Part shown: positions 15,644-44,670 of the stretch, piece by piece
How the letters are laid out: the number at the start of each line of letters is the position of its first letter
Position numbering within the stretch: the first letter of the stretch is position 1
From: a phage
Length of the DNA stretch: 44,706 nt
Assembly (NCBI GenBank): GCA_021454005.1
Contig: GCA_021454005.1_3939.1
Strand: one strand, 5' to 3'
Notes under the pieces: generated by a model
What the model was told of the DNA's origin: nothing
Seen by the model: only the letters and a program-made list of their open reading frames with translations
Databases searched by the model: none
Translations under genes and position numbers: made by a program

Positions 15644-18022
15644 ATGGCAGATTACAAGTTGAGTGAATTAAACTCAATCGATACAATCCGTTCAGATGAC
15701 CTTCTTCACGTCAGGGTTAAAAAGAGACCTGAAATGCTTGGTGATGAAGACCGTCGAATGACCTATCAAGATTTCTTAGCATCTTTTAAACTTGAAAGAT
15801 TTGTTCAGATTGCTGGTAGTACTATGACAGGTGATTTAGGGATTGTTAAGTTACTTTATGGTGGTAAGGTAGTCTTTGACCCAACAGGCTCTTCTGAGAT
15901 TACTATTGGGGATGTTTTAAAGACTTTTAAAATCAACGCAAATGGCCTTAAACTAACTATTGCAGATGCTTCAAGGTCGGCAACTGTTTATCATACTCTG
16001 AATAAGCCAAGTCCTAATGAACTTGGGATGAGAACTAATGAAGAGAATGATGCAAGATACTCAAGATTAGCTGCAAATAACACCTTTAGAGGTACTCAAG
16101 CTATTCTCTCTGACAATGAAGCCCTTATTGTTAAGAATATTACACAAGGGATGCCACTCTATATTCGTGGTCAAGATGCAGATGGCACTAACAGATGGTA
16201 TCTAGGCAATGATAATAAAGGCACAGACAACCTTGTTTTAAAAAACGTTAAATCTGGTGCATACGTAGCGATTTTAGCTAACCTAATCTCTGTGAATAAA
16301 TCAATTCAAATCACTGGTCAAGTACAACCTTCTGACTTCTCTAACTTAGATGCTAGATATTTTACTCAGACAGTTGCTAATCAGAGATTTGCACAGTTAG
16401 CTGGTAATAACACATTTAGTGGTTCTAATATTTTTACTAATTTTGTTGTTAAGAAGAATGCTAATGCTATTACCATTCAAAATGGAGATACAGCTACGGC
16501 TTTGTATATCCAAGCAAGGAAATCAGACGGAACTAATAAGTGGTATATTGGTAATGATGGTGATGAGAACATTGTAAACATCTATAACTATTTAGCAAGA
16601 ACACAAATCTCACTAGGTAACACCATTACCATGAGCAGAACAGTCCAAATTGGTGGTCAAGTTCAACCTTCCGATTGGACTAATATTGACTCTAGATACA
16701 TTCCAGCAGCTACTTTGAATAATCTTGCTAAGATTAATGTTGGTAATACATTCACATTCCAGCAAATTATCCAAGCAAATGGTGAAGCTATTAGACTAAA
16801 AAACTCTTCTGAGAACTCACCGTTGTATATTAGAGGTCAGGACAGCACTGGTGCTAATAGATGGTATGTAGGTAATGGTTCAGGGAATGATAATGTTATC
16901 ATCCACAACTATAAGACAGGCTGTGAAGTGAATCTGTCTAGTGTTGCTGCTATTAATAAAACACTAAGAATCACTGGTCAAGTTCAACCTTCTGATTGGG
17001 CTAACTTGGATGCTAGATACTTTGTTAAGACTCAGTTATTAAATCAATCCTTAATGACTGTATCTGTCGATAACCTTGAAAACCCTTCAGCATTTAATCT
17101 TGGCTACTCAGGTTTTGTAAGAAATAATAGTGTTACTAGTGGCTTGAAAGAGTTGGCAATTCATGTTGCTCACTCTAGTAAGTCTGCTGCACACGCAAGG
17201 GGTATCTCTTTTGTATACGGTTCAAACGGTTTGGCAACATTCACCTATGCCTATGACAAAAATGGTGACTATGCCGGAGAGGCACAGCTTTACACAACTG
17301 ATTTCAAACCAACCCCTTCAGATATCGGTGCATACACTAAAGCTGAGACTGACCAGAAGATTGCACAGGCAGTAAGTGACTCTACAGACCTTAATAAAAT
17401 CTATCCAGTAGGTATTGTGACATGGTTTAACAGCAATATTGACCCTAATACAGCACTTCCTGGGTTAACTTGGACGTACCTGAACAATGGTGTTGGTAGA
17501 ACTATCAGAATTGCAGCAGCAAATGGTTCAGATGTTGCTACAACAGGTGGTTCAGATTCTGTGACGTTAGCTGTTGGTAACTTACCATCACACACCCATA
17601 GTTTCTCTGCTACCACTTCATCTTTTGATTATGGTACGAAGGGAACTAACAGTACTGGTGGTCATGCTCACTCTGTAAGTGGTACAACAAGTGCTGCTGG
17701 TAACCACGCTCACCACTTAGGTTTGTTATTAGTTAATGGTGGTGATGCTTTGTACGGTTATACAACAGTTGGTAACAGTCTCCCTAGAACACTTGACTGG
17801 CTTGACAGAAGGGACAATAAATTCCCTAACACTAACACAACTGGTAACCATACACATACATGGTCTGGTACTACAAGCGGTGCTGGCGACCATTCCCACT
17901 CTGTAGGTATTGGTGCTCACAGCCACACAGTCAGTGGTAACACTGGTGGTACAGGTTCTGGGTCAGCATTTAGTGTTACTAACCAGTTCTACAAGTTAAT
18001 GGCTTGGGTGAGAACTGCTTAA
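15644..18022 (+). CDS. tail fiber protein (long), three internal repeats, His-rich tip
   Basis: 792 aa; three ~112 aa tandem repeats (LYIRGQD..RWY.GN...[13 protein letters not shown]); C-terminal FDYGTK and HxH motifs paralogous to the upstream fiber. Confidence 0.65.
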
Positions 18023-22282: not shown

Positions 22283-22656
22283 GGCAGATTTTTTATAAGG
22301 CTACTGCCATCCTTCCATACCCTACCTTACCACACCTAACCATACCTAACCAAACTACACCATACAATACCTTATTAAAAGACCCTCTTAAAGACCTTTT
22401 AAAAAGGTAAGTCTCATTTTAATGTAGCTGAGACTAACTACCCACACCTTACCTCACCTGACCTGACCTGACCATACCTAGCATTACCGTGCCACACCTC
22501 ACTTAAAAACCCTCTTAGAAGACTCTTAAGTGATGTAATCGGATTTTAATGTAGCTCCGATTAACTACCCGCACTTTACCAAACCTCACCCTACCCTACC
22601 AGACCTTACCTAACCGCGCCGTACCTCATTAAAAGACCCTCTTAAAGACCTTTTAA
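22283..22656. repeat. intergenic modular repeat array A (3 units)
   Basis: Hairpins at 22283-22308, 22410-22435, 22536-22563; G-depleted tracts at 22309-22374, 22436-22499, 22564-22628; second hairpin family at 22375-22402, 22500-22532, 22629-22656. Confidence 0.7.
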
Positions 22657-22678
22657 AAAGGAGCCTCCGAAGAGGCTA
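22651..22678 (-). terminator. rho-independent terminator (UUCG tetraloop) after 146-aa gene
   Basis: On - strand: AGCCTC-TTCG-GAGGCT followed by CC TTTTT; 10 nt after stop of gene 22689..23129. Confidence 0.5.
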
Positions 22679-22688
22679 CCTAGTCAAC

Positions 22689-23129
22689 TTAGAAAGGTTT
22701 TCTACGTTGCTTGTTAATGTTAGCTTTCATAGCAGCTAAATGGTTTTGCTGTTCAATTAGTCGTGAACGTTCTTGATGGCTAAGTACCATAGTGTTCACA
22801 TTCTCAATCGCTTGAGTGGCTTGCTTTAAAGCACGACCAATCTTACCAGACATTTTACGTTTTGCAATAGTTGCTTGATGCTTAGGTTCAACCACACGAT
22901 AACCAACACCCATTGAAGCAACCAGATAAATCTTCTCTTCTTTAAGAAGCTTCTCAATAAACTTCTCAAGTCGATTTAAGCGTGTAAGCGCATAAGCCTT
23001 CATTTCATCTTCGTACTTAACAATGTCACCTTGATAAGTTGGCTTCACAATACCTAAGAAGGTGTCCATCTCAGAATGTGATACAGTGTCACCGTAACTA
23101 AACTTTGCTGCTAATGCTTTTGTATTCAT
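22689..23129 (-). CDS. hypothetical protein (cassette gene 2)
   Basis: 146 aa ORF, basic C-terminus (KANINKQRRKPF); no motif recognised; between repeat arrays. Confidence 0.4.
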   Translation of the reverse strand: MNTKALAAKFSYGDTVSHSEMDTFLGIVKPTYQGDIVKYEDEMKAYALTRLNRLEKFIEKLLKEEKIYLVASMGVGYRVVEPKHQATIAKRKMSGKIGRALKQATQAIENVNTMVLSHQERSRLIEQQNHLAAMKANINKQRRKPF

Positions 23130-23131
23130 AA

Positions 23132-23737
<606 letters not shown>

Positions 23738-23760
23738 TTAGTTGATTGTTAAGTTGTTTG

Positions 23761-24098
23761 TAAAGAACCCTCAATAGAAGACTCTTTAGAAACTTGGTAG
23801 ATTTTTAACGTGGCTACTACCATCCACCCACACTTTGCCATACCTCACCGCGCCTTACCCGACCGGGCTGCACCTTGCCTTGCCAAACATCACTTAAAAA
23901 CCCTATGAGATACCCTATCGAGTATAATTTAAAGGCTCTTAAGTGATGTAAGTCTCATTTTAATGTAGCTGAGACTAACTACCCATACCCTACTTTACCT
24001 TGCCGTACCGTACTTTACCCGACCACACCGGACAATACTTAACCCTACCTCACCCGACCGGACATCACTTAAAAACCCTCTTAGAAGACTCTTAAGTG
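23761..24098. repeat. intergenic modular repeat array B (2-3 units)
   Basis: Second-family hairpins at 23761-23788, 23891-23945, 24066-24098; first-family hairpins at 23796-23821, 23951-23976; G-depleted tracts at 23822-23890, 23977-24065. 24066-24098 equals 22500-22532; 23951-23976 equals 22410-22435. Confidence 0.7.
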
Positions 24099-26363: not shown

Positions 26364-26569
26364 AGCAAATTCTCGATGTCTACACGTTCACCTTTTAAGT
26401 ACCCTGTCTTATCTTTTGCGATTTTCCCTCCAGCAATAAAGATATCTGCTATACGCAGAGCTTCAGGGTTTACTCTATAACCACTGCAAATAACAATAAG
26501 CATGTCTTCAATCTCTTTTTGAGAATAACCTGCACATTGCAACTGAACTTCAATCTCTGAAAGCGTCAT
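26360..26569 (-). CDS. small protein, paralog of 25939..26172
   Basis: 69 aa; shared C-terminal motif; RBS AGGAGG; conserved TTGACAAGGTG box upstream. Confidence 0.4.
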   Translation of the reverse strand: MTLSEIEVQLQCAGYSQKEIEDMLIVICSGYRVNPEALRIADIFIAGGKIAKDKTGYLKGERVDIENLL

Positions 26570-26630
26570 GTGACCTCCTATACAAGATACAGTATAAGGT
26601 ACTCTTCCATGAGCACCTTGTCAATACTAA

Positions 26631-29330
26631 TTAGTGAACCTCAAGCCAGCTTTTACCAACCTTACCAGTACCTGTAACAAGTGTTTCTTTCTTAAGACCT
26701 AAGTTCTTAGAAGCTTGTCCATAATACCAGTCAGTAACCGCTTTCACCTCTGCCGTCATGCTTTCTGGACATTCCCAACTCGTCTCATCGTGATATGCGC
26801 AGAGTAAACGAGCACCAATAGCTGGTTTGCGACCATTCAACTTCATCAAGCCTTCGTCAATCATACGACGACAAGCAAGGTTAATCGCCTCATTTTGAAT
26901 CTGAGCCTCTGAACCCATCAAAAGATAGTTCAATAATTTGTGTGGAGATTTACACCACAACCAAGCTCCAGCAACCTTTACAAAACCACCTTTAGAGATT
27001 GCAGCAGTCTTACCAAATACCTCTTCAAGTGCCTTTTTAGTTGCTTTGTAGTCAGCTTCCAAGTCATCTAGCAGCTTTTTAATTTTAGGCAAACGAATAA
27101 AGTAAGTCTGTTTAGTCAGCGCACCTTCCTGAGTAGTTGCAGCTTTAATCGTCTTAGCAAACTTCTCATCACCTGCACCGAACAGCAGTGCATAGATACC
27201 ATTCTTAGCTTTCTTACGACCCTTGCTAATCTCATGAAGAAGATTCTCATCCTGAGTAGCTCGACAAGTCAAGATGTCCTGCTCATCGTTCAAGTTAAAG
27301 TAAATACTGTTCAGTGTATGTGCATCAGTCCCTGAATAGACAACGTACAGGTCATTCTCAGAGTCATAGCGAAGGTACTTATCAATCTCTGGGTTAAGGT
27401 ACTCATCAAAGTGTTTACAGTAATAGCGTCCATCTTCTTGACGAATGAACTCAATTTCTTCTTTACCTTGCGTTACCGCTTTGGTGAAGTCTTTATCACC
27501 CATAAAGTTACAAAGAAGAACTAGCTGGGCTGAGTTCATGTCTACAGAGACAACGTTAGTACCTTCCTCACAAATCCACACTGCCCTCATTGGTTCCCCA
27601 TAGACAGCAGCACCAGACGGTACGTTTACAATACCATACTGTGTCATACGTCCAGTTGAAGTACCAAACACCATTGCACCAGCACTAAGGCGACCATCAG
27701 GACGAATCTGGTTCAACCAACCTTTTTCATCATCCTTTGAGTTCTCAATAGTTCTGCGTCGGTGCATCAAAGTGTAGTATTTAGCAATCTTCTGTCCAAG
27801 CTCACCTTCAATCGTATCGTAAGATGATTCAGTAAGTTTTGGTGAAGTACGGATTAAGCAAGGCTCAAGCAAATCTGTGTACTTCTTCACAGACCAGTTA
27901 TGCTCAATGTACTGGACGCCTTCGTGTTCAACATAACTCAAACCACACCGCTCAACCATTTCCTGCCACTTAGGATGCTTTGTAATCATCTTTTTATTGT
28001 CTTTGAAACGACAAACTTTGACAGGGCGACCATCAGAGTCTTTCTTGTAGTTCCAGTCATCTGGAATCCAACCAACTGATTTCAAGTAGTCTTTAACAAC
28101 TGCTACCTGAGTCATACGAGAAACTTCAAACTCAATTGGTGTATATGGTGCATCAATCAAACCTGTGTAGCGACTTGACTCAAGTTCAAAGTGGTTAACA
28201 ACGTGGCTGTTATAGTACTTCACAGTTTTGACTGTTTTTACTGGCTTCCAGTCTTTGCATTTCTTGCCAATCTTTGCGTTCAACTCATTGCAAATTGCAC
28301 GAGCATCCTTCATTGCTACAAAGCCTTCCTTGTACTCTTCACCAGTTACAGTGTTGGTTGGTGTATAGCAATTCCTTTTTTCAATGTTAAAAATCTTTGT
28401 AGTTGGCTTACCAAATGGTTTGATTTCGTATGTCTGCATCTCGCCATTACGTACCTGCTGACGATACTTTGTCTTAGGGTACTTGGTAATTCTTTTCAGT
28501 CCATCTGCATGACCAAATGTTTCAACATACTCATTCCAAGCTTTTGCAAACTCTTCTCCAGTGACTTTACCTTTGGTCTTAATAGTTGGAGGTAGATGTG
28601 GTTCAACCTCTGAAGCAAGCTCATTAGTCAACTTGTCAAGTTCCTTTACATGGAACTCCATAAGCTCTTTATCAGCTTTCCAACCATTGATAGCTTGTTG
28701 ACTCATCCAGAAAGATGTTTCTTTAGCTCGCATGTAGGTTTCATAAGTGTCTATGCCACACTTCTTAAGCTTGAGATACTCATTATCAAGTGCCCGTTTA
28801 GTTTTGGCGTTAATACGGATATCTTCTACAACACGAGTGAAGATTTCTGCATTCCACACACCCCAATGTTCAATCTCTGGTTTACGAACACCGACACGAG
28901 CACCCCATGCAGCCAAACCATGAGCACCTTTATAACCCTTTGGAGTTGGTCTATCCATCCACTGAACACGAGACTGGATAAGAGAATCCTGAAAGAAATT
29001 ACTCCACGGTTTACACTTTGGATTATCAAAGTTCCATAAATCGGGTGCAATGTGATTGAAAACCCACCAGTCATAACCAAGACCATTATGAATGCAAAGA
29101 CGTTTTGCCTTTAACGCAAATTCAATACCTTCACGTAAGCCACCCTTAATGTACTTGGTATACTTGTGACCGAGGATAGGCTCATCTGTAAAGACCCATA
29201 CAGGTGGCTCTTCATCGTCAGATTTATAGTCTGCGAAAGCCATTACGTGCACTTTAGTGAACTCAAGGAGTAAACCATCAGTTTCTGTATCACCAACTAA
29301 ATGTAAGTTTTTAAAATCTACGTTTTCCAT
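26631..29330 (-). CDS. DNA polymerase, family A (T7-like)
   Basis: Exo motif GDTETDGL; Pol A motif B RKKAKNGIYALLFGAG; motif C YHDE; start set at ATG 29330 with RBS GAGGGAG. Confidence 0.85.
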   Translation of the reverse strand: MENVDFKNLHLVGDTETDGLLLEFTKVHVMAFADYKSDDEEPPVWVFTDEPILGHKYTKYIKGGLREGIEFALKAKRLCIHNGLGYDWWVFNHIAPDLWNFDNPKCKPWSNFFQDSLIQSRVQWMDRPTPKGYKGAHGLAAWGARVGVRKPEIEHWGVWNAEIFTRVVEDIRINAKTKRALDNEYLKLKKCGIDTYETYMRAKETSFWMSQQAINGWKADKELMEFHVKELDKLTNELASEVEPHLPPTIKTKGKVTGEEFAKAWNEYVETFGHADGLKRITKYPKTKYRQQVRNGEMQTYEIKPFGKPTTKIFNIEKRNCYTPTNTVTGEEYKEGFVAMKDARAICNELNAKIGKKCKDWKPVKTVKTVKYYNSHVVNHFELESSRYTGLIDAPYTPIEFEVSRMTQVAVVKDYLKSVGWIPDDWNYKKDSDGRPVKVCRFKDNKKMITKHPKWQEMVERCGLSYVEHEGVQYIEHNWSVKKYTDLLEPCLIRTSPKLTESSYDTIEGELGQKIAKYYTLMHRRRTIENSKDDEKGWLNQIRPDGRLSAGAMVFGTSTGRMTQYGIVNVPSGAAVYGEPMRAVWICEEGTNVVSVDMNSAQLVLLCNFMGDKDFTKAVTQGKEEIEFIRQEDGRYYCKHFDEYLNPEIDKYLRYDSENDLYVVYSGTDAHTLNSIYFNLNDEQDILTCRATQDENLLHEISKGRKKAKNGIYALLFGAGDEKFAKTIKAATTQEGALTKQTYFIRLPKIKKLLDDLEADYKATKKALEEVFGKTAAISKGGFVKVAGAWLWCKSPHKLLNYLLMGSEAQIQNEAINLACRRMIDEGLMKLNGRKPAIGARLLCAYHDETSWECPESMTAEVKAVTDWYYGQASKNLGLKKETLVTGTGKVGKSWLEVH

Positions 29331-31637: not shown

Positions 31638-31838
31638 ATGAAGATGAGAGTAAAAGACAATTTTAAAGTTATTGACCACCGTTTAGTGGAACTCTCATCT
31701 CTTTCCAATGAGGTAATGATTGAACGTCTTAAGAGAGTTGAATCACGAAGGAAAGAGATTGCAGATGAAATTCATGAACTGGACAAGATTGAAAATGGAT
31801 TGAAGGCAGAACTACAACGAAGAGGTGCTAATGTCTAA
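31638..31838 (+). CDS. hypothetical small protein
   Basis: 66 aa charged, helical ORF; position only. Confidence 0.3.
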   Translation: MKMRVKDNFKVIDHRLVELSSLSNEVMIERLKRVESRRKEIADEIHELDKIENGLKAELQRRGANV

Positions 31839-33816
31839 AGGTCGTAAATTGAAAGAGGCTGGTCAGTTTGTTGGTCATTGCGCATGTCCACGTTGTGGCT
31901 CATCAGATGCTGGTTCAATCTATCATCATGACGATGATTCTTATTCAATGACTTGCTTTAGTTGTAACAAAGGTTTCCCAGAGTGGGATTTTGATAAAGG
32001 ACAAATCGTGAGCACTTATTCTACTGGTTCAGACAATAAAAACCGTACTTTCCGTGGAATGGATTTAGACGATGTAAAAGAAAACCTAGAAGCAATGGAC
32101 TTGAAAGATAGGAAGATTCCTGCAAAAGTCCTTGAACGCTTAGGTATCAAGGTTGACATTGACAGTGATGGTGAAATTGACGCGCATTTCTATCCAACTT
32201 ACAAACGTAATGAAGATGGTAAGCTAGAGCACGTTGGCTACCGTGTTCGTCACCGTTACCCAGAAGACCATCCAAAAGAACACCTACGAGGTAAGTTAAA
32301 AGACTTTTCTGGTGGTGTTGGAGACATTAAAGGTGAACTGGCAATGTTCGGTTCATGGATTGCTCCAGAAGGTGGTAACCGTCTATTCATCTGGGAAGGT
32401 GAGATGGAATGTGCGACAGCAATCTATATGACTTCTCTTGCGATTAAGGATAAATCTCGTCGTAAGAATTACTGTCACGTATCTGTTCCATCAGGTGCAA
32501 ACATCAAGTCTATCAAAGATAACTATCAGTACATTACATCATTTGATGAGATTTACTTGTGCTTTGATAACGATGAAGCAGGTGCTAAAGCCACTAAAGA
32601 GGCTGCTGGTATCCTACCTATTGAGAAGGTTCGTTTATTCCAGTATCCAGAAGGCGTAAAAGACCTTAACGAGTGGTGGACAAAGTTCTATAAAGAGAAA
32701 GACACAGTTCTGGAAGGATTTAAGCAGCGTATCTACAATGCACCTCGTTACTGTCCTGCTGGTATCAAGAACTTTGCAGATGGTTTTGAGGCAATGAAGA
32801 ATCGTGGTCAGATTCCATTGATTCCTTTCCCAGAATCTTTCGGAGATTTGAACAGGCTGACTTATGGTGGTTACGGTTTAGGTGAGATTACAACTATTGC
32901 AGCACCATCTTCAGTAGGTAAGTCAGCTTACACTCGTGAGATGATTTATTCAGCTTGGAAAGAAACTGATTATAATATCGGTGTAATTCCTGTAGAAGAT
33001 ACCTATGAAGAGTTGATGGAGATGCTCTGTGCAATCCACCTGAGCAAGCAGATTTCTGAGATTCCTTATGACGAACGTGATTGGGATGAATTGAAGAAGG
33101 CACACGCAGAACTGTCTAAGGGTCGTCGTATCCACATCGTTGACCATCAAGGGGCAATTGACCAAGATAACTTGCTGGAGTTTGTTGACTATCTTGTTAA
33201 CAGCTTAGACTGTAAGATTATTATTCTTGACCCTATTACGTTGGCTCTGTCACGTTCAGATACGGATGAAGAGGAAGTTTTATCTGAGCTATTGCGTCGT
33301 TGCAAACGCTACCAGTATGCACAGGTGAACGTCTGTCACGTTCGTAAGAGTGCAGGTGGTCAGAAGGCTAACTCCGAAGGTGGAGATATCTCTGAAGAGG
33401 ATATTAAAGGTTCTGGTGCGTATTTCCAGATTTCTATGAACAACATTCTATTAATGCGTAACAAGGTTGACTCAGACCCTGTTAAGAAAAACTTGACAAA
33501 AATCAAGTTAACTAAATGCCGTCGTCATGGTAAGTCAACAGGTATTGCTGGTCATACTTGGTACAATCCAGATACAGGACGTCTCATTAAAGCCTCTGGT
33601 TGTGGAGTTGACATTGATGGTGCAGCAGAAAATATTCGCCAACAGTTTGGTATTGGTGAAGCTGAAGACCATTACGATGACTCTTTGCCACATTATGAGG
33701 ATGAAGTGTTTGACCGTGAGACTGGTGAAGTCTATACTGAAGAGCAGCGTCAAAGCTCAACGATTCCACCTGTATTAAGTGAGGATGCAGATGACTGCCC
33801 GTTCGAAACTGAGTGA
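31831..33816 (+). CDS. DNA primase/helicase (T7 gp4-like)
   Basis: N-terminal zinc ribbon CACPRCGSSD...CFSCNKG; Walker A APSSVGKS and Walker B IIILDP in C-terminal half; start at ATG 31831. Confidence 0.8.
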   Translation: MSKGRKLKEAGQFVGHCACPRCGSSDAGSIYHHDDDSYSMTCFSCNKGFPEWDFDKGQIVSTYSTGSDNKNRTFRGMDLDDVKENLEAMDLKDRKIPAKVLERLGIKVDIDSDGEIDAHFYPTYKRNEDGKLEHVGYRVRHRYPEDHPKEHLRGKLKDFSGGVGDIKGELAMFGSWIAPEGGNRLFIWEGEMECATAIYMTSLAIKDKSRRKNYCHVSVPSGANIKSIKDNYQYITSFDEIYLCFDNDEAGAKATKEAAGILPIEKVRLFQYPEGVKDLNEWWTKFYKEKDTVLEGFKQRIYNAPRYCPAGIKNFADGFEAMKNRGQIPLIPFPESFGDLNRLTYGGYGLGEITTIAAPSSVGKSAYTREMIYSAWKETDYNIGVIPVEDTYEELMEMLCAIHLSKQISEIPYDERDWDELKKAHAELSKGRRIHIVDHQGAIDQDNLLEFVDYLVNSLDCKIIILDPITLALSRSDTDEEEVLSELLRRCKRYQYAQVNVCHVRKSAGGQKANSEGGDISEEDIKGSGAYFQISMNNILLMRNKVDSDPVKKNLTKIKLTKCRRHGKSTGIAGHTWYNPDTGRLIKASGCGVDIDGAAENIRQQFGIGEAEDHYDDSLPHYEDEVFDRETGEVYTEEQRQSSTIPPVLSEDADDCPFETE

Positions 33817-33886: not shown

Positions 33887-33915
33887 TTGACAAAGATTGA
33901 TAGGTTCTATAGAAT
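33887..33915 (+). promoter_or_regulatory. sigma70-like promoter TTGACA-17-TAGAAT
   Basis: TTGACA 33887-33892, 17 nt spacer, TAGAAT 33910-33915. Confidence 0.45.
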
Positions 33916-34290: not shown

Positions 34291-35148
34291 ATGTCTAAAG
34301 TTGTTAAAATGAAAGCTCCGGTAGAGAAGTACAACGGTACTGAACGTCAAACTCTGCGTTACCTGCTGAAAGATGTCTGGTTTTATTACCTGAACACTTC
34401 ACCGCGTCCGGGAAAAGGTAAGTCTATTGATAAGAAATTCCCAGGCAAGGACTGTAACTACAGCGTATCAATTCTGGCAGAAGACGGTAACAAACTGTTT
34501 AAAGAGTTTACTAAGTCTAAGAAGAACCCAGAAGGTTGGGATAAAGTTACTACTGAAGCAGTTGATGCAGATGACTTCGAAGAGAAGTTTGGCTGCAAAC
34601 CACCTTTTGAAGCAGACACTTACTACATCTTGAAAGTAAGTCGTGCAGCAGCTTATAAAGATGGTGCTGTATGGACAGCTAAACAGTCATTCCCTGTAAT
34701 GCTGATTGAAGAAGTAAACGGTAAACGTGTAGCTGTTAAACAGCCGATGAAGAAAATCAAAGCTCAAGCATCTGATAAGCATGAAGATGATAAGAACTAT
34801 GATGTAATTCATCCAGATATTGCAGTTGGTAACGGTTCTTTTGGTAGTGTGATTCTTTCTACTCACTTCTACACTTTTGAGAACAATGTTCTGACTAAAC
34901 CTATTCAGGAACAGTTTATCATTGATACTCTTGTACCTTACACTGGTGGTAACGGTGCTAATGGTGAACCTGAACTGGATGAAGATGAACTGGCTATGCT
35001 TGGTCTTGATGGTGTCGAAGATAACGGTGAAATCACTGAAGAAGACGCAACAGACCATAAATCTTCGAATGATTCTGATGATGGTGATGATGAAGATTTG
35101 CCAGACCCAGATGACGAAGAGGATGAAGACTTCGATACAGAAGATTAA
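34291..35148 (+). CDS. single-stranded DNA-binding protein (T7 gp2.5-like)
   Basis: Highly acidic C-terminal tail ending DEEDEDFDTED with aromatic residue near the end; sits with primase-helicase and exonuclease. Confidence 0.45.
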   Translation: MSKVVKMKAPVEKYNGTERQTLRYLLKDVWFYYLNTSPRPGKGKSIDKKFPGKDCNYSVSILAEDGNKLFKEFTKSKKNPEGWDKVTTEAVDADDFEEKFGCKPPFEADTYYILKVSRAAAYKDGAVWTAKQSFPVMLIEEVNGKRVAVKQPMKKIKAQASDKHEDDKNYDVIHPDIAVGNGSFGSVILSTHFYTFENNVLTKPIQEQFIIDTLVPYTGGNGANGEPELDEDELAMLGLDGVEDNGEITEEDATDHKSSNDSDDGDDEDLPDPDDEEDEDFDTED

Positions 35149-35209: not shown

Positions 35210-36250
35210 ATGGAGAAGTACACATTAACAAAACTTCCCGATTCAGTTACACATGTTTTTATTGACTCTGACAGTATTGCCTATAAAGGTGCTTGTGTAG
35301 TTGAGAAATCAAAATATAAATACGTCAATAAACTCACAGCAGAAGAATCTGAGCCATTTGATAATGCGAAAGATGCTGCAAGATGGTTAGCAGACCAGAG
35401 AATCCTTGTGGAAGAACTTGGCCTGACATTTGATGAAGATGAATGGGAAAGACAAACTTGGAAAGAAGCTAAGAGTGAAAAAGAAGCTATCATGGCTACT
35501 CAACAGGTGCTTCAGGAATGGCTTAAGATTGTTGGTAAAGAAAGAACTTGGGTAGGCTATTTAACAGAGAAAGGTGTGCATAAACATAAAGACATTAAAG
35601 GTCTTGAGCACCAATATCAAGGGAACCGTAAAGATGCTGTCACACCAACACACTTAGTTGCTTGTCGTGAGTATCTTCTGTCAAGACCAGAGTTCAAACT
35701 CTTAAAGGGAGGATTCGAAGCCGATTCAATCGTAATTGCTAAAGCTGAAAAGATGGGTAAGAAAGCTGCTCTTATGAGTATTGACAAAGACCTTCGACAA
35801 GCTGAAGGAACTTATTGTATTGATATGACTTATGAAAAATCACCACTAATTTTTATTGCTGATAATAATGTTGGTGATATCTGGGATTGTCCTATCAAAT
35901 CAAAACCAAAAGCTGCAAAAACAGTTGGTGTAGGTTTTAAATTCTTGTGTTATCAGGCTGTTGCTGGAGATAATGCAGACAACTACTTCGGCCTAAAAGG
36001 GGCTGGTAAAGTAGCTGTGATGAATGCTTTAGATGGTAAAGAGACCTACAAAGAGTGTCTTGATGCTATCTATGAACTCTATGCTAAAAAAGACTCTTAT
36101 ACCTATGTGTCATGGGATGGACAGACTGTTACAAAGACACCGTTAGAGTTAATGGAACAGCATTTCTGGATAGCATATCAAGAGAGAAATCCAAAAGACA
36201 ATTTCTCTTTCAAGAAATATAATTGGGAGCCGTGTATGAATGAAGATTAA
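35210..36250 (+). CDS. 5'-3' exonuclease (T7 gp6-like)
   Basis: VTHVFIDSDSIAYKGA, SIDKDL and QAVAGDNADNYFGLKGAG match recalled T7 gp6 segments. Confidence 0.75.
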   Translation: MEKYTLTKLPDSVTHVFIDSDSIAYKGACVVEKSKYKYVNKLTAEESEPFDNAKDAARWLADQRILVEELGLTFDEDEWERQTWKEAKSEKEAIMATQQVLQEWLKIVGKERTWVGYLTEKGVHKHKDIKGLEHQYQGNRKDAVTPTHLVACREYLLSRPEFKLLKGGFEADSIVIAKAEKMGKKAALMSIDKDLRQAEGTYCIDMTYEKSPLIFIADNNVGDIWDCPIKSKPKAAKTVGVGFKFLCYQAVAGDNADNYFGLKGAGKVAVMNALDGKETYKECLDAIYELYAKKDSYTYVSWDGQTVTKTPLELMEQHFWIAYQERNPKDNFSFKKYNWEPCMNED

Positions 36251-36737
36251 AGGATTTGGCAATTGCCCTACCTACGGTCATTGGGTATCTTTATGTGGGG
36301 AAGTTGACCCCACTAAACATTTTGGCTTTGTCTATTTAGTACACTGTAAGAAGACTGGACAATATTATATAGGAAAGAAACAGCTTAACAGTGTGACCAA
36401 AAGAAAAGTTGCTGGGAAGACTCGGAAGAAGGTAGTCACTAAGGAAAGTGATTGGATGACTTACGAAACCTCTTCTGAGTATATTAAAAAAGATATTGAG
36501 AGTTTTGGAAAAGAATTTTTTGACTTTTACATTATTCAGACCTATTACACAAAAGGTGGCCTAGTCTATGGTGAAGCAAACCTTCAACATAAATTCGATG
36601 TAATGACAAAAAGGATTGACTCTAAGCTCAGACTCTTCTACAATGCCAATATTGCAGCAATTAAGTTTATCACTAAAGAAACTTATGAAGATGCTGAAAA
36701 AAGAATCCATAAGGTAATGAAAGCAAATTGTGCTTGA
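36240..36737 (+). CDS. GIY-YIG family endonuclease (homing endonuclease-like)
   Basis: GFVYLVHCKKTGQYYIGKK shows GIY...YIG spacing with downstream R/E residues; overlaps exonuclease stop by 11 nt. Confidence 0.55.
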   Translation: MKIKGFGNCPTYGHWVSLCGEVDPTKHFGFVYLVHCKKTGQYYIGKKQLNSVTKRKVAGKTRKKVVTKESDWMTYETSSEYIKKDIESFGKEFFDFYIIQTYYTKGGLVYGEANLQHKFDVMTKRIDSKLRLFYNANIAAIKFITKETYEDAEKRIHKVMKANCA

Positions 36738-36743
36738 TAACTA

Positions 36744-36989
36744 TTGAGAGAGAATAAAATGTTTAACAAAAGCAAAGCTGTGAGTCATGTAGCAAAAGTT
36801 GACAGCAAGATTGAAGAACTTGAGCGCATCCTTGCAAATGCTAGAGAGTCAATAATCAAAGAAGTTGAAGCTGTTGAATCTCAAATGCAGCACCTAATGC
36901 TTAAACGCCAAGAGCTACGTGAGCATCTGGAATATATTGAAACACGAGAGCTAAAGGTTAACAGATTTTTAAGGAGTCCAAATGTTTAA
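36744..36989 (+). CDS. hypothetical small coiled-coil protein
   Basis: 81 aa charged helical ORF. Confidence 0.3.
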   Translation: MRENKMFNKSKAVSHVAKVDSKIEELERILANARESIIKEVEAVESQMQHLMLKRQELREHLEYIETRELKVNRFLRSPNV

Positions 36990-37737
36990 CTCAAGAGAAG
37001 CAGTAAAAAACTGGAATCTTCGTTGTGGAAACACTCAAAAGCAACCTTACAGTGATGAGTATTGGGAATCTTTAAAATCCCAGTCTCTGTGTATGCTGGA
37101 AGAAGCAAAAGAGCTTGTAAAAGCAATTGAAGAGAAAGACCCCATTGAGACACTGGATGCTCAGGCAGATTTGCAATATGTTCTTGACGGTTTGATTTAC
37201 CTGTCACAACATGACCATAACGGTGCTATGAAAGCTGTTTGCCGTAATAATGACCTGAAGTACACAGATGACTATGAAGAAGCTTTAAAACGTCTTGCAG
37301 ATATTGAGAAGCGTACTGGTCAAGAGTGTATTATCAGAATGTCAGTAGTTGATGGTAAAGAGTGGTATGCCATTGTTCGTGCAGCAGATGGGAAGATTAT
37401 GAAGCAATCGAATCTCCCTAAAGTACAGCTTGGTGAATACATTGTAGAACTTGAAAGCCAAGAACTTTTTGTGGTAGTATCTGAGACATGCGTTATCTGC
37501 AAAGGTATTGTAGATAGTTTAAAGGATTTGGGTGTAGATGGTTTTGTAGAAGTTAATCCAATTACCTCTAAAGCAGATAAAGACTTCTGTAAAGAGAATG
37601 GACTATGGATTGCAGATATTGTCTATTATGATGGTGAGCAGTTCCATGTAACCTCATACCCGAAACTGAATTATGATGCTAATAACCTGAAGTGCTGGTT
37701 AAAAGGGGTTGGTTATAATGGATTCACAGAACATTAA
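36982..37737 (+). CDS. hypothetical protein, possible MazG-like domain
   Basis: N-terminal segment LEEAKELVKAIEEKDPIETLDAQADLQYVLDGL resembles the MazG/HisE helical motif (weak, by eye). Confidence 0.3.
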   Translation: MFNSREAVKNWNLRCGNTQKQPYSDEYWESLKSQSLCMLEEAKELVKAIEEKDPIETLDAQADLQYVLDGLIYLSQHDHNGAMKAVCRNNDLKYTDDYEEALKRLADIEKRTGQECIIRMSVVDGKEWYAIVRAADGKIMKQSNLPKVQLGEYIVELESQELFVVVSETCVICKGIVDSLKDLGVDGFVEVNPITSKADKDFCKENGLWIADIVYYDGEQFHVTSYPKLNYDANNLKCWLKGVGYNGFTEH

Positions 37738-38418: not shown

Positions 38419-40653
38419 ATGATTAAGACAATTAAAAAATCAAACGGTACAGTAGTAAGCTTTGACCCAGAAAGACTGAATAAGTGGGCATCATGGGCAG
38501 ATAAACGTGGAATTATCTGGTCAGAAGTCACTATGGAAGCTATGAAACGTGTCTATGAGGGTTGCACTACAAAAGAGATGCACCAAGCCATGATTGATGT
38601 TTGTGTTGATAAACAAACTCAAGAGTACTCAGATATGGCTGGACGGCTACTTTTGGGTATTATCTACAAAGAAGCCTTTGGAGGCTTTACTAAGGTTCCT
38701 ACGCTGGTTACCTTCGTTAAAAATATGGAGAGAGCAGGACTTTGGGAGAAGATGGACTACTCACAGGAAGAGCTTGAATACCTGCAAGGTTACATTGTGC
38801 ACTCAAAAGATATCTCTTACGGTTATGCAGTCTTGAAACAGTTCAGAGACAAGTATGGTATCCGTGATATTAAAACGGGAAGACTTTTTGAGTCACCACA
38901 ATTTATGTTCATGGGTATGGCTATGAAAGCCTTTGAGAAGCAACCAAAGCACCGTAGACTGCAAGATGTTATCAAGCTGTACACTTACCTATCTGACCTG
39001 AAGATTAACGCGCCTACGCCATATTTAAACGGTTTAAGAGCAACTAAATCAGGTTATGCGTCATGCTGTTTGATTAAGGCAAATGACACTGCCGAATCTC
39101 TCGGTATTGCTGCAAAGGTTGCTTATGATATGACTACAAAGCAAGCTGGCATTGGGATGCTGATGGAGACTCGTACTATTGGTGATGGTATCCGTCAAAA
39201 TACTATTGAGCACATGGGTAAACTCCCTTATTACAAGCTTGTACGCTCATCTGTAGAGGCAAACAAACAGAAGAGTCGTGGTGGTTCAGCTAATAACTTC
39301 TACACTGCTCTAGACCCGCAGATTGAAGATTTACTGCGTTTGAAGCACCCTACAACGGTTCCTTCTAAACGTATTAATGAGATGGACTACTCATTCGGCA
39401 CAAACGATTATTTCTGGCAGTGTGTTCAGTATGATACAGATTGGTTGCTATTCTCTTACAAAGATGCACCAAAACTCTATGACATGTTCTACACAGCATC
39501 TGCTGATGAGTTTGCTATGGCAGTTGGTCATGCAGTACATTCAGGTGTTAAGCACAGACGGGTAAAGGCTCGTGAAATTGCTAAGCTGTTTATTCAACAG
39601 CGTTATGCTACAGGTCGTGTGTATCCATTCTTCACTAACAATGCAAACACACATACACCATTTAAAGAACCATTGAAGATGTCAAATCTTTGTATGGAAA
39701 TTGTGTTGCCAGTGTACGGCTTTGAGAAAGAGACAGACCTTTACAGAGATGATGCTATGAAAGAGGATGGTGAGGTAGCTCTTTGCTTCCTAGCTAGTTT
39801 GGTTGCAGGGAGAATTTCAGAAGATGAATACGCTGACGTTGCTTATTATGCTCTTGCAATGGTTGACTCCGTTATTGACCTTATGGATTATCCGTATCCG
39901 TCGATGCGTAACCATGTTCAGAAGCGTCGTTCTGTTGGGATTGGCCTTACAAATGTGGCTCATTACCTTGCGAAGAACTACGTGAACTACTCTTCACGAG
40001 CAGGTAAAACGAAACTTCATGAACTGGCAGAGATGCACTCTTACTATCTGCATGAAGCCTCTCTGAGACTTGCTAAAGAGCGTGGAGTTCCAGAGTACAT
40101 GAAGTTCACTAAGTATCCTGAAGGCTGGGTTCCTCCAAAGACAGCCAACAAGAAGATTGATGAAAAGCATGATGCAAAACTACGATATGATTGGGATGAC
40201 TTAGCACAACGTATCAAAGAAAATGGTGGAATCCGAAACTCTGTATTAGAAGCTTACATGCCTAATGAGAGTTCTTCACTAGCAACTAATACGACAAATG
40301 GCTTGTACCCAATTCGTGACTTTATTTTAACTAAAAAGTCTGCAACTGGTAACGTGCTGTTTATTGTTCCAGATTATGAAGAGTTGAAGTATGTATATGA
40401 AATTGCTTGGGGTATTGACACCTTTGACCTGATTGATTGTTATGCAATTGTTCAAAAGTTCACTGGTCAAGCTATCTCTTCAGATTTCTATGTTGACTAC
40501 GCAAAAGCTAAGAAGGTATCATTGGCTCAAGCTTTGAAGTACATGATTTATGCCAACTCGGTAGGTATGAAAACCATGTACTACCTTAACAGTCGCATTG
40601 GTGTAGGTAAATCTGCACTGCAAGATGCTTATTGCGAGGGTTGTGGTGTTTAG
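38419..40653 (+). CDS. nrdA: ribonucleotide reductase class Ia alpha subunit
   Basis: N-terminal ATP-cone-like segment; SNLCMEIVLP, GEVALCFLAS, RRSVGIGLTNVAHYLAK and C-terminal CEGCG match recalled E. coli NrdA motifs. Confidence 0.85.
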   Translation: MIKTIKKSNGTVVSFDPERLNKWASWADKRGIIWSEVTMEAMKRVYEGCTTKEMHQAMIDVCVDKQTQEYSDMAGRLLLGIIYKEAFGGFTKVPTLVTFVKNMERAGLWEKMDYSQEELEYLQGYIVHSKDISYGYAVLKQFRDKYGIRDIKTGRLFESPQFMFMGMAMKAFEKQPKHRRLQDVIKLYTYLSDLKINAPTPYLNGLRATKSGYASCCLIKANDTAESLGIAAKVAYDMTTKQAGIGMLMETRTIGDGIRQNTIEHMGKLPYYKLVRSSVEANKQKSRGGSANNFYTALDPQIEDLLRLKHPTTVPSKRINEMDYSFGTNDYFWQCVQYDTDWLLFSYKDAPKLYDMFYTASADEFAMAVGHAVHSGVKHRRVKAREIAKLFIQQRYATGRVYPFFTNNANTHTPFKEPLKMSNLCMEIVLPVYGFEKETDLYRDDAMKEDGEVALCFLASLVAGRISEDEYADVAYYALAMVDSVIDLMDYPYPSMRNHVQKRRSVGIGLTNVAHYLAKNYVNYSSRAGKTKLHELAEMHSYYLHEASLRLAKERGVPEYMKFTKYPEGWVPPKTANKKIDEKHDAKLRYDWDDLAQRIKENGGIRNSVLEAYMPNESSSLATNTTNGLYPIRDFILTKKSATGNVLFIVPDYEELKYVYEIAWGIDTFDLIDCYAIVQKFTGQAISSDFYVDYAKAKKVSLAQALKYMIYANSVGMKTMYYLNSRIGVGKSALQDAYCEGCGV

Positions 40654-42525: not shown

Positions 42526-44670
42526 ATGAACAAAGTACAGATTATTAAAAAGAATGGCTCACTTGAAGAACCTGATATCAAAAAAGTTTTAGCAGCAGTC
42601 ACAAAGTCAGCTAACAGAGTTGGTTATAAAGAGCTTCCACCAGATGTTACTCAAGCTCTTGAGTCAGCATTTATGAGGATTCTGGTAAAGTCCACTAAGC
42701 AGAATAATTTGCTAATTTCGGTAAATGATATTCACAGTATTGTTGAGGGTGCTTTGGCAGAAGTCAATCACGAGATTTATGAGTCTTACTCAACATATAG
42801 AAATTACCGTAAAGAGGTTGCTCAAAATTGGGATGAACTCTACCAGAAGACTAAAGATACACTCTTCTTAGGTGACCGAGAAAACGCTAATTTTGACAGC
42901 AGTTTAATTTCTACAAAAGGTTCAATTATTCGTGGTTATCTGACTAAAGAAATCTTTAAACAGTACCATTTAACACCAGAGGAACTTGAAGCCATTGAAA
43001 AAGGGTTTATCTACATCCATGATTTAAGAGACCTAATTTTTGGTGGTATCAACTGTTGCCTGTTTGACATTGGTAAAGTCCTGAAAGGTGGCTTTGAAAT
43101 GTCTGGCATCGAATATTGTGAACCGAAGTCTGTACTGTCAGCCTTACAGGTTATTGGTGATGTAGTTCTTTCAGCAACTGCACAGCAATTTGGTGGCTTT
43201 ACTTTAGCAGAGATTGATAAGGTACTTGTACCGTATGCTAAGAAGTCTCTACACTATCATGCTGAGAAAGCAGCATCTTATGGTATTCCTAAAGAACATT
43301 ACCACAATTATGTCATGGAGCAGCTACAGATTGAACTGACTCAGGGTTTCCAGTCACTTGAAATGAAACTAAACACTGTACCTTGTAGTCGTGGGGATTT
43401 TGCATTCACAACTTTGACATTCGGGTTACTTGACTCAGATATGTCCAATGAAGATAACCGACTGCAATACATGATTGCAAGTACTCTCCTAGATGTTCGT
43501 ATGAATGGACAAGGTAAGAGCAAGAAGCCTGTTGTATTCCCTAAACTGGTTTATATTTATGACCAGAAGAGACACGATGAGAATATCTGTCAAGGCCACC
43601 TGTACAGTAAAGCTATTGAGTGTTGCTCTAAAGCAATGTATCCAGACTTCTTAAGTGTATCTGGTCATGGTGCTGTAGCAGAGGCTTTTGAGCGTTCTGG
43701 TAAGGTTATTTCACCAATGGGTTGCAGAGCTTTCTTGTCTCCATATCTTAATGAGGATGGGGAAGAGTTCTACGTTGGTCGTGCTAACATTGGTGCTGTA
43801 TCTTTGAACTTACCAATGATTTACCAGTATTCTAAAGAGAATGGATTAGACTTCTGGACAGAACTTGATAAATATCTCGAAATGATTCGTAGCTTCCATA
43901 AGAAACGCTACGAAATGATTGCTAATATGCCAGCAAGTTCTAACCCTCTTGCATTCACACAAGGTGGTCTGTACAAAGGAACTAAGAAACCTACTGACAA
44001 GGTTGGTTGGGATATTGTGAAGTCCTTCACAGCTTCTTTTGGTGTTACTGCGCTTGATGAGTTGTCTGTTCTTGCTGAAGGTAAACGACTTCATGAAGTT
44101 GGAAGCTATAGTTTTGCATATGATGTTCTGGCATACATCAACATGAAAACCGAAGAGTTTAAAAATGAAGATGGCTTCTTATATGCCGTCTATGGTACTC
44201 CAGCAGAATCACTATGTGGGACTCAGCTAAAACAGTTCAGAGATATGTTTGGGGTTATCAAAGGTGTTTCCGATAAGGAATACTTTACAAACAGTTTCCA
44301 TATGAATGTTGCAGCAGACATCTCGCCATTTGAGAAGCAGGACTTAGAAGAGCGATTCTTCCATATCTGTAGAGGCGGTAGAATCCAGTATGTAAGAGTA
44401 GCTAACCCAGAAAACTTAACAGCACTTAAAAGTTGTATTACAAGAGGGATGTTGAAAGGTTTCTATCAGGGGCTTAACTTTGACTTAGCAATCTGTGAAC
44501 ATTGTGGTAACAGACCAAAGGCTGATGTTGAAGAATGTGAGGTTTGCCATTCACATGATATCTCTGTGATTAACAGGGTGTGTGGGTATCTTGGATGGAC
44601 TAAGATTAAAGGTGAATCCCGAATGAACGATGCAAAAATCGCTGAGATTCGTGATAGAGTCTCTATGTAA
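42526..44670 (+). CDS. nrdD: anaerobic ribonucleotide reductase class III
   Basis: C-terminal glycyl-radical motif RVCGYLG preceded by Cys cluster CEHCGN...CEVCHSH; N-terminal ATP-cone-like segment; 714 aa. Confidence 0.85.
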   Translation: MNKVQIIKKNGSLEEPDIKKVLAAVTKSANRVGYKELPPDVTQALESAFMRILVKSTKQNNLLISVNDIHSIVEGALAEVNHEIYESYSTYRNYRKEVAQNWDELYQKTKDTLFLGDRENANFDSSLISTKGSIIRGYLTKEIFKQYHLTPEELEAIEKGFIYIHDLRDLIFGGINCCLFDIGKVLKGGFEMSGIEYCEPKSVLSALQVIGDVVLSATAQQFGGFTLAEIDKVLVPYAKKSLHYHAEKAASYGIPKEHYHNYVMEQLQIELTQGFQSLEMKLNTVPCSRGDFAFTTLTFGLLDSDMSNEDNRLQYMIASTLLDVRMNGQGKSKKPVVFPKLVYIYDQKRHDENICQGHLYSKAIECCSKAMYPDFLSVSGHGAVAEAFERSGKVISPMGCRAFLSPYLNEDGEEFYVGRANIGAVSLNLPMIYQYSKENGLDFWTELDKYLEMIRSFHKKRYEMIANMPASSNPLAFTQGGLYKGTKKPTDKVGWDIVKSFTASFGVTALDELSVLAEGKRLHEVGSYSFAYDVLAYINMKTEEFKNEDGFLYAVYGTPAESLCGTQLKQFRDMFGVIKGVSDKEYFTNSFHMNVAADISPFEKQDLEERFFHICRGGRIQYVRVANPENLTALKSCITRGMLKGFYQGLNFDLAICEHCGNRPKADVEECEVCHSHDISVINRVCGYLGWTKIKGESRMNDAKIAEIRDRVSM

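Follow-up and report, generated by a model that had tools for sequence, protein, structure and literature searches.

A short SegE-type GIY-YIG gene of Felix O1-like phages: a conserved core gene and proposed partner of the adjacent exonuclease

The phage contig GCA_021454005.1_3939.1 (NCBI GenBank assembly GCA_021454005.1), a stretch of 44,706 nucleotides referred to here as the window, carries on its plus strand, at 36240..36737, a short open reading frame (ORF) that begins with ATG and encodes (stop codon included in the coordinates) a domain-only SegE-type GIY-YIG nuclease of 165 aa. Our comparisons identify it as a vertically inherited core gene of the Ounavirinae that is under strong purifying selection, and as neither an insert, a remnant nor a mobile element. 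As to function, the sequence evidence points to an endonuclease that serves the phage and is functionally coupled to the T7-gp6-like 5′–3′ exonuclease encoded directly upstream (35210..36250, plus strand), a reading to which we would assign a probability of about 0.55.

Distribution and constraint in the Ounavirinae

The window region is 99% identical to Felixounavirus genomes, and orthologues of the GIY-YIG ORF include ORF107 of Felix O1 and bas63_0057 of phage Bas63. By tblastn (cut-offs E ≤ 1e-40 for the exonuclease and E ≤ 1e-30 for the GIY-YIG protein), the exonuclease was found in 302 phage records of the Ounavirinae and the GIY-YIG protein in 301, the counts (exonuclease/GIY-YIG) being 120/120 for Escherichia, 29/29 for Erwinia, 23/23 for Shigella, 14/14 for Felixounavirus, 11/11 for Citrobacter, 4/4 for Pectobacterium, 3/3 for Hafnia and 80/79 for Salmonella. 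The lone negative record, GE_vB_B3 (marked UNVERIFIED; L132), does contain the gene sequence in frameshifted form, a defect that also affects its primase, exonuclease and nrdA genes; the ORF is likewise frameshifted in EC6 (L030). Both cases look like sequencing errors and not like gene decay. The gene was in place in all 31 of the loci fetched. Synteny is shared by Felixounavirus, Mooglevirus and Kolesnikvirus as well as by Pectobacterium phage Wc4-1 and Hafnia phage SarahDanielle, which are not assigned to a genus, and the order exonuclease, GIY-YIG gene, small ORF, MazG recurs in Felix O1, Moogle, Erwinia phage M7, Wc4-1 and SarahDanielle. A synthetic query representing an insert-less allele, in which the exonuclease 3′ end was fused to the sequence downstream of the GIY-YIG ORF, had no contiguous match in 60 sampled rows of 275 records, its two halves lying at least 487 bp apart.

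These observations bear on an earlier, first-pass annotation of the window, made from the sequence alone, which had seen in the ORF a free-standing homing endonuclease gene wedged in after the exonuclease gene and had proposed comparing this junction in related phages. The comparison finds the gene uniformly present, in all 302 exonuclease-bearing records and in 31 of 31 loci, and its product carries no DNA-binding module, so that the reading as a homing endonuclease is not supported. Polymorphism of presence and absence does exist at the junction, but for an HNH gene that is missing from the window and not for the GIY-YIG gene.

The alternative raised in the same annotation, that of a decaying remnant, is contradicted by the constraint on the sequence. 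Among five neighbouring genes compared by pairwise Nei–Gojobori estimates, the GIY-YIG gene has the lowest ratio of non-synonymous to synonymous substitution rates (dN/dS), 0.038, as compared with 0.055 for the exonuclease gene, 0.111 for a 285-aa ORF, 0.129 for the MazG-like gene and 0.177 for an 81-aa ORF; its catalytic residues are also invariant, as described below. A ratio of about 0.04 and conservation in 301–302 phage records likewise show that it is not a chance ORF. Within the subfamily, the divergence of the GIY-YIG protein tracks that of its neighbours: identity to the M7 proteins is 61% for the GIY-YIG protein, 54% for the exonuclease and 70% for the primase/helicase, and the corresponding values for Wc4-1 are 51%, 52% and 71%. 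Seg-type homing endonucleases are sporadically distributed. Three features of homing endonucleases were tested in all, namely a DNA-binding domain, a sporadic occurrence among relatives, and a loosening of constraint accompanied by a conversion tract of the gene's own, and the GIY-YIG gene displays none of them.

Domain, fold and catalytic residues of the GIY-YIG protein

The GIY...YIG signature reported in the first pass is confirmed. Residues 21–138 of the protein match Pfam PF19835 (SegE_GIY-YIG) over profile positions 10–123 of 123 (E = 9.4e-28; 97.4 bits, the curated cut-off being 25), and PHROG 447 is matched over positions 3–147 of 148 (E = 4.2e-48). Motif A consists of G29-F-V-Y32 and Y43-I-G45, in which the canonical 10 residues separate the tyrosines, and falls on model strands 29–36 and 42–48. 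The AlphaFold (AF2) model, with a predicted local distance difference test (pLDDT) score of 94, has the alpha/beta fold of the GIY-YIG superfamily; its nearest fold is the catalytic domain of I-TevI, and the structure-specific enzymes SLX1 and UvrC are among the other fold matches. Sequence searches against PDB chains, whether started from the protein alone or from a profile of 61 sequences, returned chance-level matches only, and neither PADLOC nor NCBIfam gave a match for the protein.

Fifteen residues are invariant in 61 diverse homologues (H14, W15, G29, F30, Y32, Y43, G45, K47, W72, Y75, S78, F96, E112, Y134 and N135), and Y32, Y43, E112 and N135 remain so when T4 SegE is added to the alignment. 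The first-pass annotation had considered that catalytic residues might prove to be lost on alignment, which is not the case. E112 lies within helix 105–118, and Y134–N135 follow that helix. The catalytic core, residues 29–138 (36324..36653, plus strand), thus holds four invariant residues of catalytic type, whose codons on the plus strand are 36333-36335 (Y32), 36366-36368 (Y43), 36573-36575 (E112) and 36642-36644 (N135). By sequence motif, these correspond to Y6, Y17, E75 and N90 of I-TevI, the sequence of which was checked against 1MK0 and 1LN0; hhalign of the family profile against I-TevI is weak (probability 2.9%) and spans only the two tyrosines, not E112 or N135. The catalytic roles of the GIY-YIG Glu and Asn have been described (PMC2988022).

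Besides the core, the protein has an N-terminal extension, a basic hairpin and one C-terminal helix. The extension (residues 1–28; 36240..36323, plus strand) contains the family-invariant H14–W15, forms short beta strands in the model and is absent from T4 SegE. A Lys/Arg-rich beta-hairpin insertion (residues 50–69, NSVTKRKVAGKTRKKVVTKE; 36387..36446, plus strand), with DSSP strands at 50–55 and 64–69 of the model, occupies the place of the canonical helix alpha-1 and is also missing in T4 SegE. This hairpin may act as a built-in DNA-binding element. The single C-terminal helix (residues 150–163 in the model; 36687..36728, plus strand) stands where longer relatives have NUMOD3, NUMOD1 or helix-turn-helix (HTH) modules. 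The suspicion voiced in the first pass that so short an ORF might lack a DNA-binding domain was therefore well founded, the catalytic domain being supplemented only by the 28-aa N-terminal extension and the C-terminal helix.

The wider family separates along the same line. A profile search of 1.84 billion representatives yielded 2266 clusters at E ≤ 0.001, and the best 150 of these show a bimodal length distribution, with 68 of at most 200 aa and 82 longer. All ten long relatives scanned with Pfam have a NUMOD3, NUMOD1, HTH or I-HmuI-like DNA-binding module after the catalytic domain, while the short members, the GIY-YIG ORF of the window included, have no such module. The N-terminal extension and the hairpin are present in the long relatives too, which are up to 41% identical to the window protein. 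The 81-aa ORF downstream of the GIY-YIG gene was considered as a possible severed DNA-binding tail and rejected: it gives only sub-threshold Pfam matches, mostly coiled-coil, and no NUMOD or HTH match.

Database labels for the gene conflict with one another. It is called 'NAD synthetase' (RefSeq/PHROG 447), 'HNH homing endonuclease' (for example in SarahDanielle) or 'GIY-YIG homing endonuclease', and none of the three fits the evidence. The first of these names is unsupported, since Pfam at E ≤ 1 returns PF19835 only and NCBIfam returns nothing. Databases already contain both the gene and the family to which it belongs; its core status in the Ounavirinae and the recurrent pairing of short forms with exonucleases, described below, appear to be undescribed in the searchable literature.

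Linkage to exonucleases, proposed function and rival readings

The exonuclease of the window (346 aa) matches phrog_107 (E = 3e-63) and, weakly, Pfam 5_3_exonuc families, and its gene is annotated as gene 6 or exodeoxyribonuclease in Felix O1. As the first-pass annotation had noted, its stop overlaps the GIY-YIG start by 11 nt (36240-36250). A Shine-Dalgarno-like GGGAG (36225..36229, plus strand) lies within the exonuclease 3′ end, 10 nt before the GIY-YIG ATG. The overlap and the GGGAG suggest translational coupling, and the two genes appear to be co-transcribed as well. In other Ounavirinae genera the genes overlap by 8 nt or are separated by a 2-nt gap; otherwise the 11-nt overlap and the GGAG are retained. 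Promoter and terminator scans around the ORF gave matches at chance level (15 against 13.9 expected and 3 against 2.9 expected, respectively). The setting in a replication module, also recognized in the first pass, holds: a primase/helicase gene (31825-33816) precedes the exonuclease gene, and the GIY-YIG ORF is followed by the 81-aa ORF, which has no assigned function, the MazG-like pyrophosphatase gene (36982-37737) and nrdA (38419-40653).

The association with exonucleases extends well beyond the Ounavirinae. In two metagenome contigs with T7-like replication modules (L044 and L047), a short homologue overlaps the 3′ end of a 5′–3′ exonuclease gene; in a third T7-like module (L050) it directly follows an unannotated 281-aa gene. 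Elsewhere a short homologue adjoins a DNA polymerase gene two genes away from an exonuclease (L042), directly follows a gp46-like SMC_N/AAA_23 gene (L048) or lies near one (L045 and L049), or is found near a ribonucleotide reductase (RNR) gene (L051). A census started from the 80 best IMG/VR loci that a single peptide pattern retrieved. Their complete GIY-YIG ORFs formed 38 clusters at 85% identity, and for each of 29 short, non-Ounavirinae representatives the ORF immediately upstream was assigned by PHROG. An exonuclease stands directly upstream in 21 of the 29, in most cases overlapping the GIY-YIG start by 4–56 nt. Eleven of the upstream ORFs belong to phrog_1990 (Cas4-domain exonuclease), eight to phrog_107, which is the family of the window exonuclease, and one each to phrog_21388 (exonuclease) and phrog_77 (SbcC-like); the rest comprise one ribonucleotide reductase, one protease and six without a match. 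Independently, Pfam finds 5_3_exonuc domains in eight upstream proteins, and the 11 Cas4-type proteins carry the conserved motifs that one would look for in RecB/Cas4 nucleases (GHxD...DVK, QxxxY and C-x2-C-x5-C). In a GIY-YIG similarity tree built by the unweighted pair group method with arithmetic mean (UPGMA), FEN-type partners are intermingled with those of Cas4 type. As for the seven long forms (204–355 aa), they have upstream ORFs of 57–94 aa only, or none. Downstream neighbours of the short forms are less constant (metallophosphoesterase in six cases, nucleotide kinase in four, primase/helicase in three). That exonucleases of three unrelated types occupy the upstream position fits a co-worker of exonucleases and would be unexpected for a selfish element targeted to one sequence.

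If the protein is indeed such a partner, one may envisage that, having no sequence-reading domain, it would nick or break DNA with little regard to sequence, or else cut particular structures, the basic hairpin contacting the DNA, and that the exonuclease would resect from these cuts as entry points. The pair could thereby contribute to breakdown of host DNA feeding nucleotide salvage by MazG and RNR, to recombination-dependent replication, or to the processing of branches. That the protein is active as a nuclease, that it recognizes no specific site, that it cooperates with the exonuclease and what its substrate would be are all points that we infer. The Felix O1 genome paper expected hydrolysis of host DNA, identified no DNase besides the exonuclease and, among homing endonucleases, listed HNH genes only (PMC3185647). 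An exonuclease partner would account for the missing DNase, and would provide a concrete case of a catalytic domain of homing-endonuclease type turned into a core phage enzyme. More broadly, and more tentatively, it is plausible that short SegE-type GIY-YIG proteins form part of a widespread phage module of exonuclease plus endonuclease, in which the GIY-YIG component stays and the exonuclease type (FEN-like, Cas4/RecB-like or SbcC-like) is swapped; in Felix O1-like phages, the protein would then supply the so far missing nuclease that initiates recombination or the breakdown of host DNA, and would represent the catalytic domain of a homing endonuclease that has been domesticated as a core enzyme of the replication module.

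Known systems offer partial parallels. In phage T7, endonuclease I (gene 3) and the gene 6 exonuclease jointly degrade host DNA and process recombination intermediates. The window has a comparable module of gp4-like primase/helicase and gp6-like exonuclease, with the GIY-YIG ORF placed where an endonuclease partner would be useful; the likeness to T7 endonuclease I would be one of functional analogy only, since that enzyme has a different nuclease fold and its gene is not adjacent to gene 6. T4 EndoII (DenA), the best-documented analogue, is like the protein studied here a small GIY-YIG nuclease with no separate DNA-binding domain, although the two are not close homologues; it serves the phage and not itself, as the window protein probably does too. 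EndoII makes limited initial cuts in host DNA, after which the gp46/47 exonuclease degrades it and nucleotide scavenging begins (PMC2764454); the role proposed here follows the same logic of endonuclease plus exonuclease. Some short homologues of the ORF adjoin gp46-like SbcC/Rad50 genes. T4 SegE shares Pfam PF19835 and the Tyr, Tyr, Glu, Asn and Y-x-x-S positions with the window protein, but it is a distant member of 205 aa that has neither the N-terminal HW extension nor the basic hairpin. Seg enzymes possess DNA-binding modules at the C terminus and promote their own inheritance (PMC2988022), in contrast to the GIY-YIG ORF, which is universal in the subfamily, strongly constrained and devoid of such a module. 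I-TevI (1LN0/1MK0), with 13–15% identity, differs in that its targeting depends on a linker, a zinc finger and an HTH domain, and in having a helix alpha-1 with R27 and H31 where the ORF protein has a beta-hairpin followed by coil.

Several points weigh against a role as exonuclease partner. The census covers the clade nearest to the query and its clusters are phylogenetically non-independent, and more distant short homologues, in cyanomyoviruses and phage Mendera, are not beside an exonuclease. Homing endonucleases often adjoin conserved replication genes, so that adjacency alone is no proof of cooperation. Structurally, the model is nearer to the catalytic domains of homing endonucleases than to EndoII. 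The GIY-YIG protein is also about 50% identical to those of phages whose exonuclease, primase and polymerase are only 25–28% identical, a disparity that would fit either strong constraint or past horizontal transfer. Finally, there is no obvious counterpart of the motif-B Arg (R27 in I-TevI), residues 70–79 (SDWMTYETSS) being coil; the invariant K47 and the near-invariant R62 and K64 are candidate stand-ins. T4 SegE, which is listed as active (PMC2988022), likewise has no obvious Arg at this position of the alignment, and for this reason the missing Arg need not be a sign of inactivity.

Four other explanations deserve consideration. The view closest to that of the first-pass annotation is that the gene encodes an active Seg-type homing endonuclease that has swept to fixation and is either still selfish or provides marker exclusion against competing phages without it. 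The protein does share its Pfam family with T4 SegE, which is listed as an active homing endonuclease (PMC2988022, Table 1), its catalytic domain is nearest to that of I-TevI, members of the family turn up in many unrelated phages and settings, the high identity to distant phages would fit horizontal transfer, and several GenBank records use the label 'GIY-YIG homing endonuclease'. Against this stand the complete lack of presence/absence polymorphism in 302 records, the missing DNA-binding domain that the long relatives have, a dN/dS lower than that of the four neighbouring genes, divergence that follows the neighbours inside the subfamily, the occurrence of short forms behind three unrelated types of exonuclease, and the fact that the only conversion-like tract at the locus goes with the HNH gene (see below); we regard such an endonuclease as improbable. 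At the other extreme, the ORF might be a catalytically dead remnant kept for some structural or regulatory reason, such as signals for downstream genes, as its shortness and the lack of an obvious motif-B Arg could suggest, and some T4 endonuclease genes are known to be kept for the promoters embedded in them (PMC2988022). Within the ORF, however, promoter-like matches are no commoner than chance, the whole protein is under purifying selection, the catalytic Tyr, Tyr, Glu and Asn do not vary among 61 diverse homologues, and the Arg is not obvious in the active-listed SegE either, all of which makes this explanation very improbable indeed.

Closer to the proposed partnership, the protein could be a structure-specific debranching or junction-resolving nuclease with an SLX1-like logic, standing in for T7 endonuclease I or T4 endonuclease VII before packaging and leaving the host chromosome undegraded. 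SLX1 and UvrC, both of them fold matches of the model, are structure-specific GIY-YIG enzymes, the gene lies in a replication/recombination module beside a FEN-type exonuclease, and no resolvase is named in the RefSeq annotation of Felix O1, which lists HNH genes and the GIY-YIG ORF as its sole endonucleases; even so, we consider this unlikely. A nuclease directed against nucleic acid of host immunity, for instance retron msDNA, or against signalling molecules, its adjacency to the exonuclease having no functional meaning, has in our estimation only a slim chance of being correct. The idea draws on a preprint proposing that gp77 of Bas63, a phage of the same genus, is said to hold a GIY-YIG domain and counters retron Ec67 (PMC11482910). 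Yet gp77 is bas63_0077, which has no sequence similarity to bas63_0057, PADLOC gives no match, and for a conditionally useful anti-defence gene one would expect neither universal presence at a dN/dS of 0.04 nor coupling to exonucleases in different groups of phages. The possibility that gp77 was the very gene studied here was rejected because, for the genes checked, the numbering in that paper matches the locus tags (gene 65 glutaredoxin, g79/g80 NAD genes). As a separate observation, bas63_0077 (L038:7949-8461) has no GIY-YIG domain by Pfam or PHROG, and PHROG gives only a weak HNH-family match.

A mobile HNH gene at the junction and other differences from relatives

The junction between the exonuclease and GIY-YIG genes is a homing site, as the first-pass annotation had sensed, but for an HNH gene that is absent from the window. 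What the window contains, at 36211..36239, is the empty site of an HNH_3/AP2 homing endonuclease gene, pairwise alignments placing an insert of 485–518 bp after window positions 36210-36242. An insert of about 490 bp separates the two genes in 13 of 30 Felixounavirus, Mooglevirus and related loci, EC6 having a larger gap, and in 89 of 275 GenBank records the two flanks are too distant to join, as such an insert would produce; about a third of the relatives carry the gene. In Felix O1 it is ORF106 (L001:2483-3007), with HNH_3 and AP2 domains; the element measures about 490–520 bp. ORF106 substitutes for the last approximately eight codons of the exonuclease gene and ends ...GGAGAAGCTTATGAATG. 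The start context of the GIY-YIG gene, GGAG...ATGAATGAAGATTAAAGG, is unchanged whether the exonuclease or the HNH gene is upstream.

Most Felixounaviruses that carry the HNH gene also show a divergent tract corresponding to window 35691..36390 (plus strand), which takes in the first approximately 140 nt of the GIY-YIG ORF. According to sliding-window and segment identities, HNH carriers are 78–82% identical to the window over 35691-36230, and often over 36251-36390 as well, as compared with 95–97% in the flanks, the divergence within the tract being at the level of that between genera. Genomes without the HNH gene are 96–98% identical across the tract, with one exception (L025), in which the 3′ half of the exonuclease gene is divergent. 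The tract suggests a co-conversion-like footprint of the HNH element, brought in from a different lineage, co-conversion of flanks being the classical footprint of a free-standing homing endonuclease (PMC2988022). It is the sole conversion-like tract at the locus and goes with the HNH gene, not with the GIY-YIG ORF. An HNH gene accompanied by a conversion tract of inter-genus level bears on mosaicism in Felix O1-like phages, which are widely used in the typing of Salmonella and E. coli, in biocontrol and in therapy.

Other HNH genes differ among these phages as well. ORF95 of Felix O1, an HNH gene beside the DNA polymerase gene, is absent from the window at 26364-26653 (289 bp as against 558 bp). 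The nrdD gene of Bas63 (L038:2631-5517) is annotated as two joined pieces around an HNH_3/NUMOD1 endonuclease gene, in an intron-like arrangement; in the window, the nrdD ORF (42526-44670) is uninterrupted and collinear with that of Felix O1. Some 1.67 kb at 22396-24061 is not found in Felix O1 and contains two minus-strand ORFs of 146 and 200 aa, which match only PHROGs of unknown function (phrog_5926 and phrog_4652) and no Pfam family. Inside a tail-fibre-like ORF of 792 aa (15644-18022), the segment 16411-17305 cannot be aligned to Felix O1, both of its flanks being alignable, and may represent a variable region that determines host range.

Upstream of the exonuclease gene, the 285-aa ORF (34291-35148) matches phrog_3877, has no assigned function and ends in a very acidic tail (...DDGDDEDLPDPDDEEDEDFDTED) that recalls single-stranded-DNA-binding proteins of the T7 gp2.5 type. 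Two sigma-70-like promoter matches, each of 11 out of 12 positions, lie upstream of this ORF, at 33887 and 34226.

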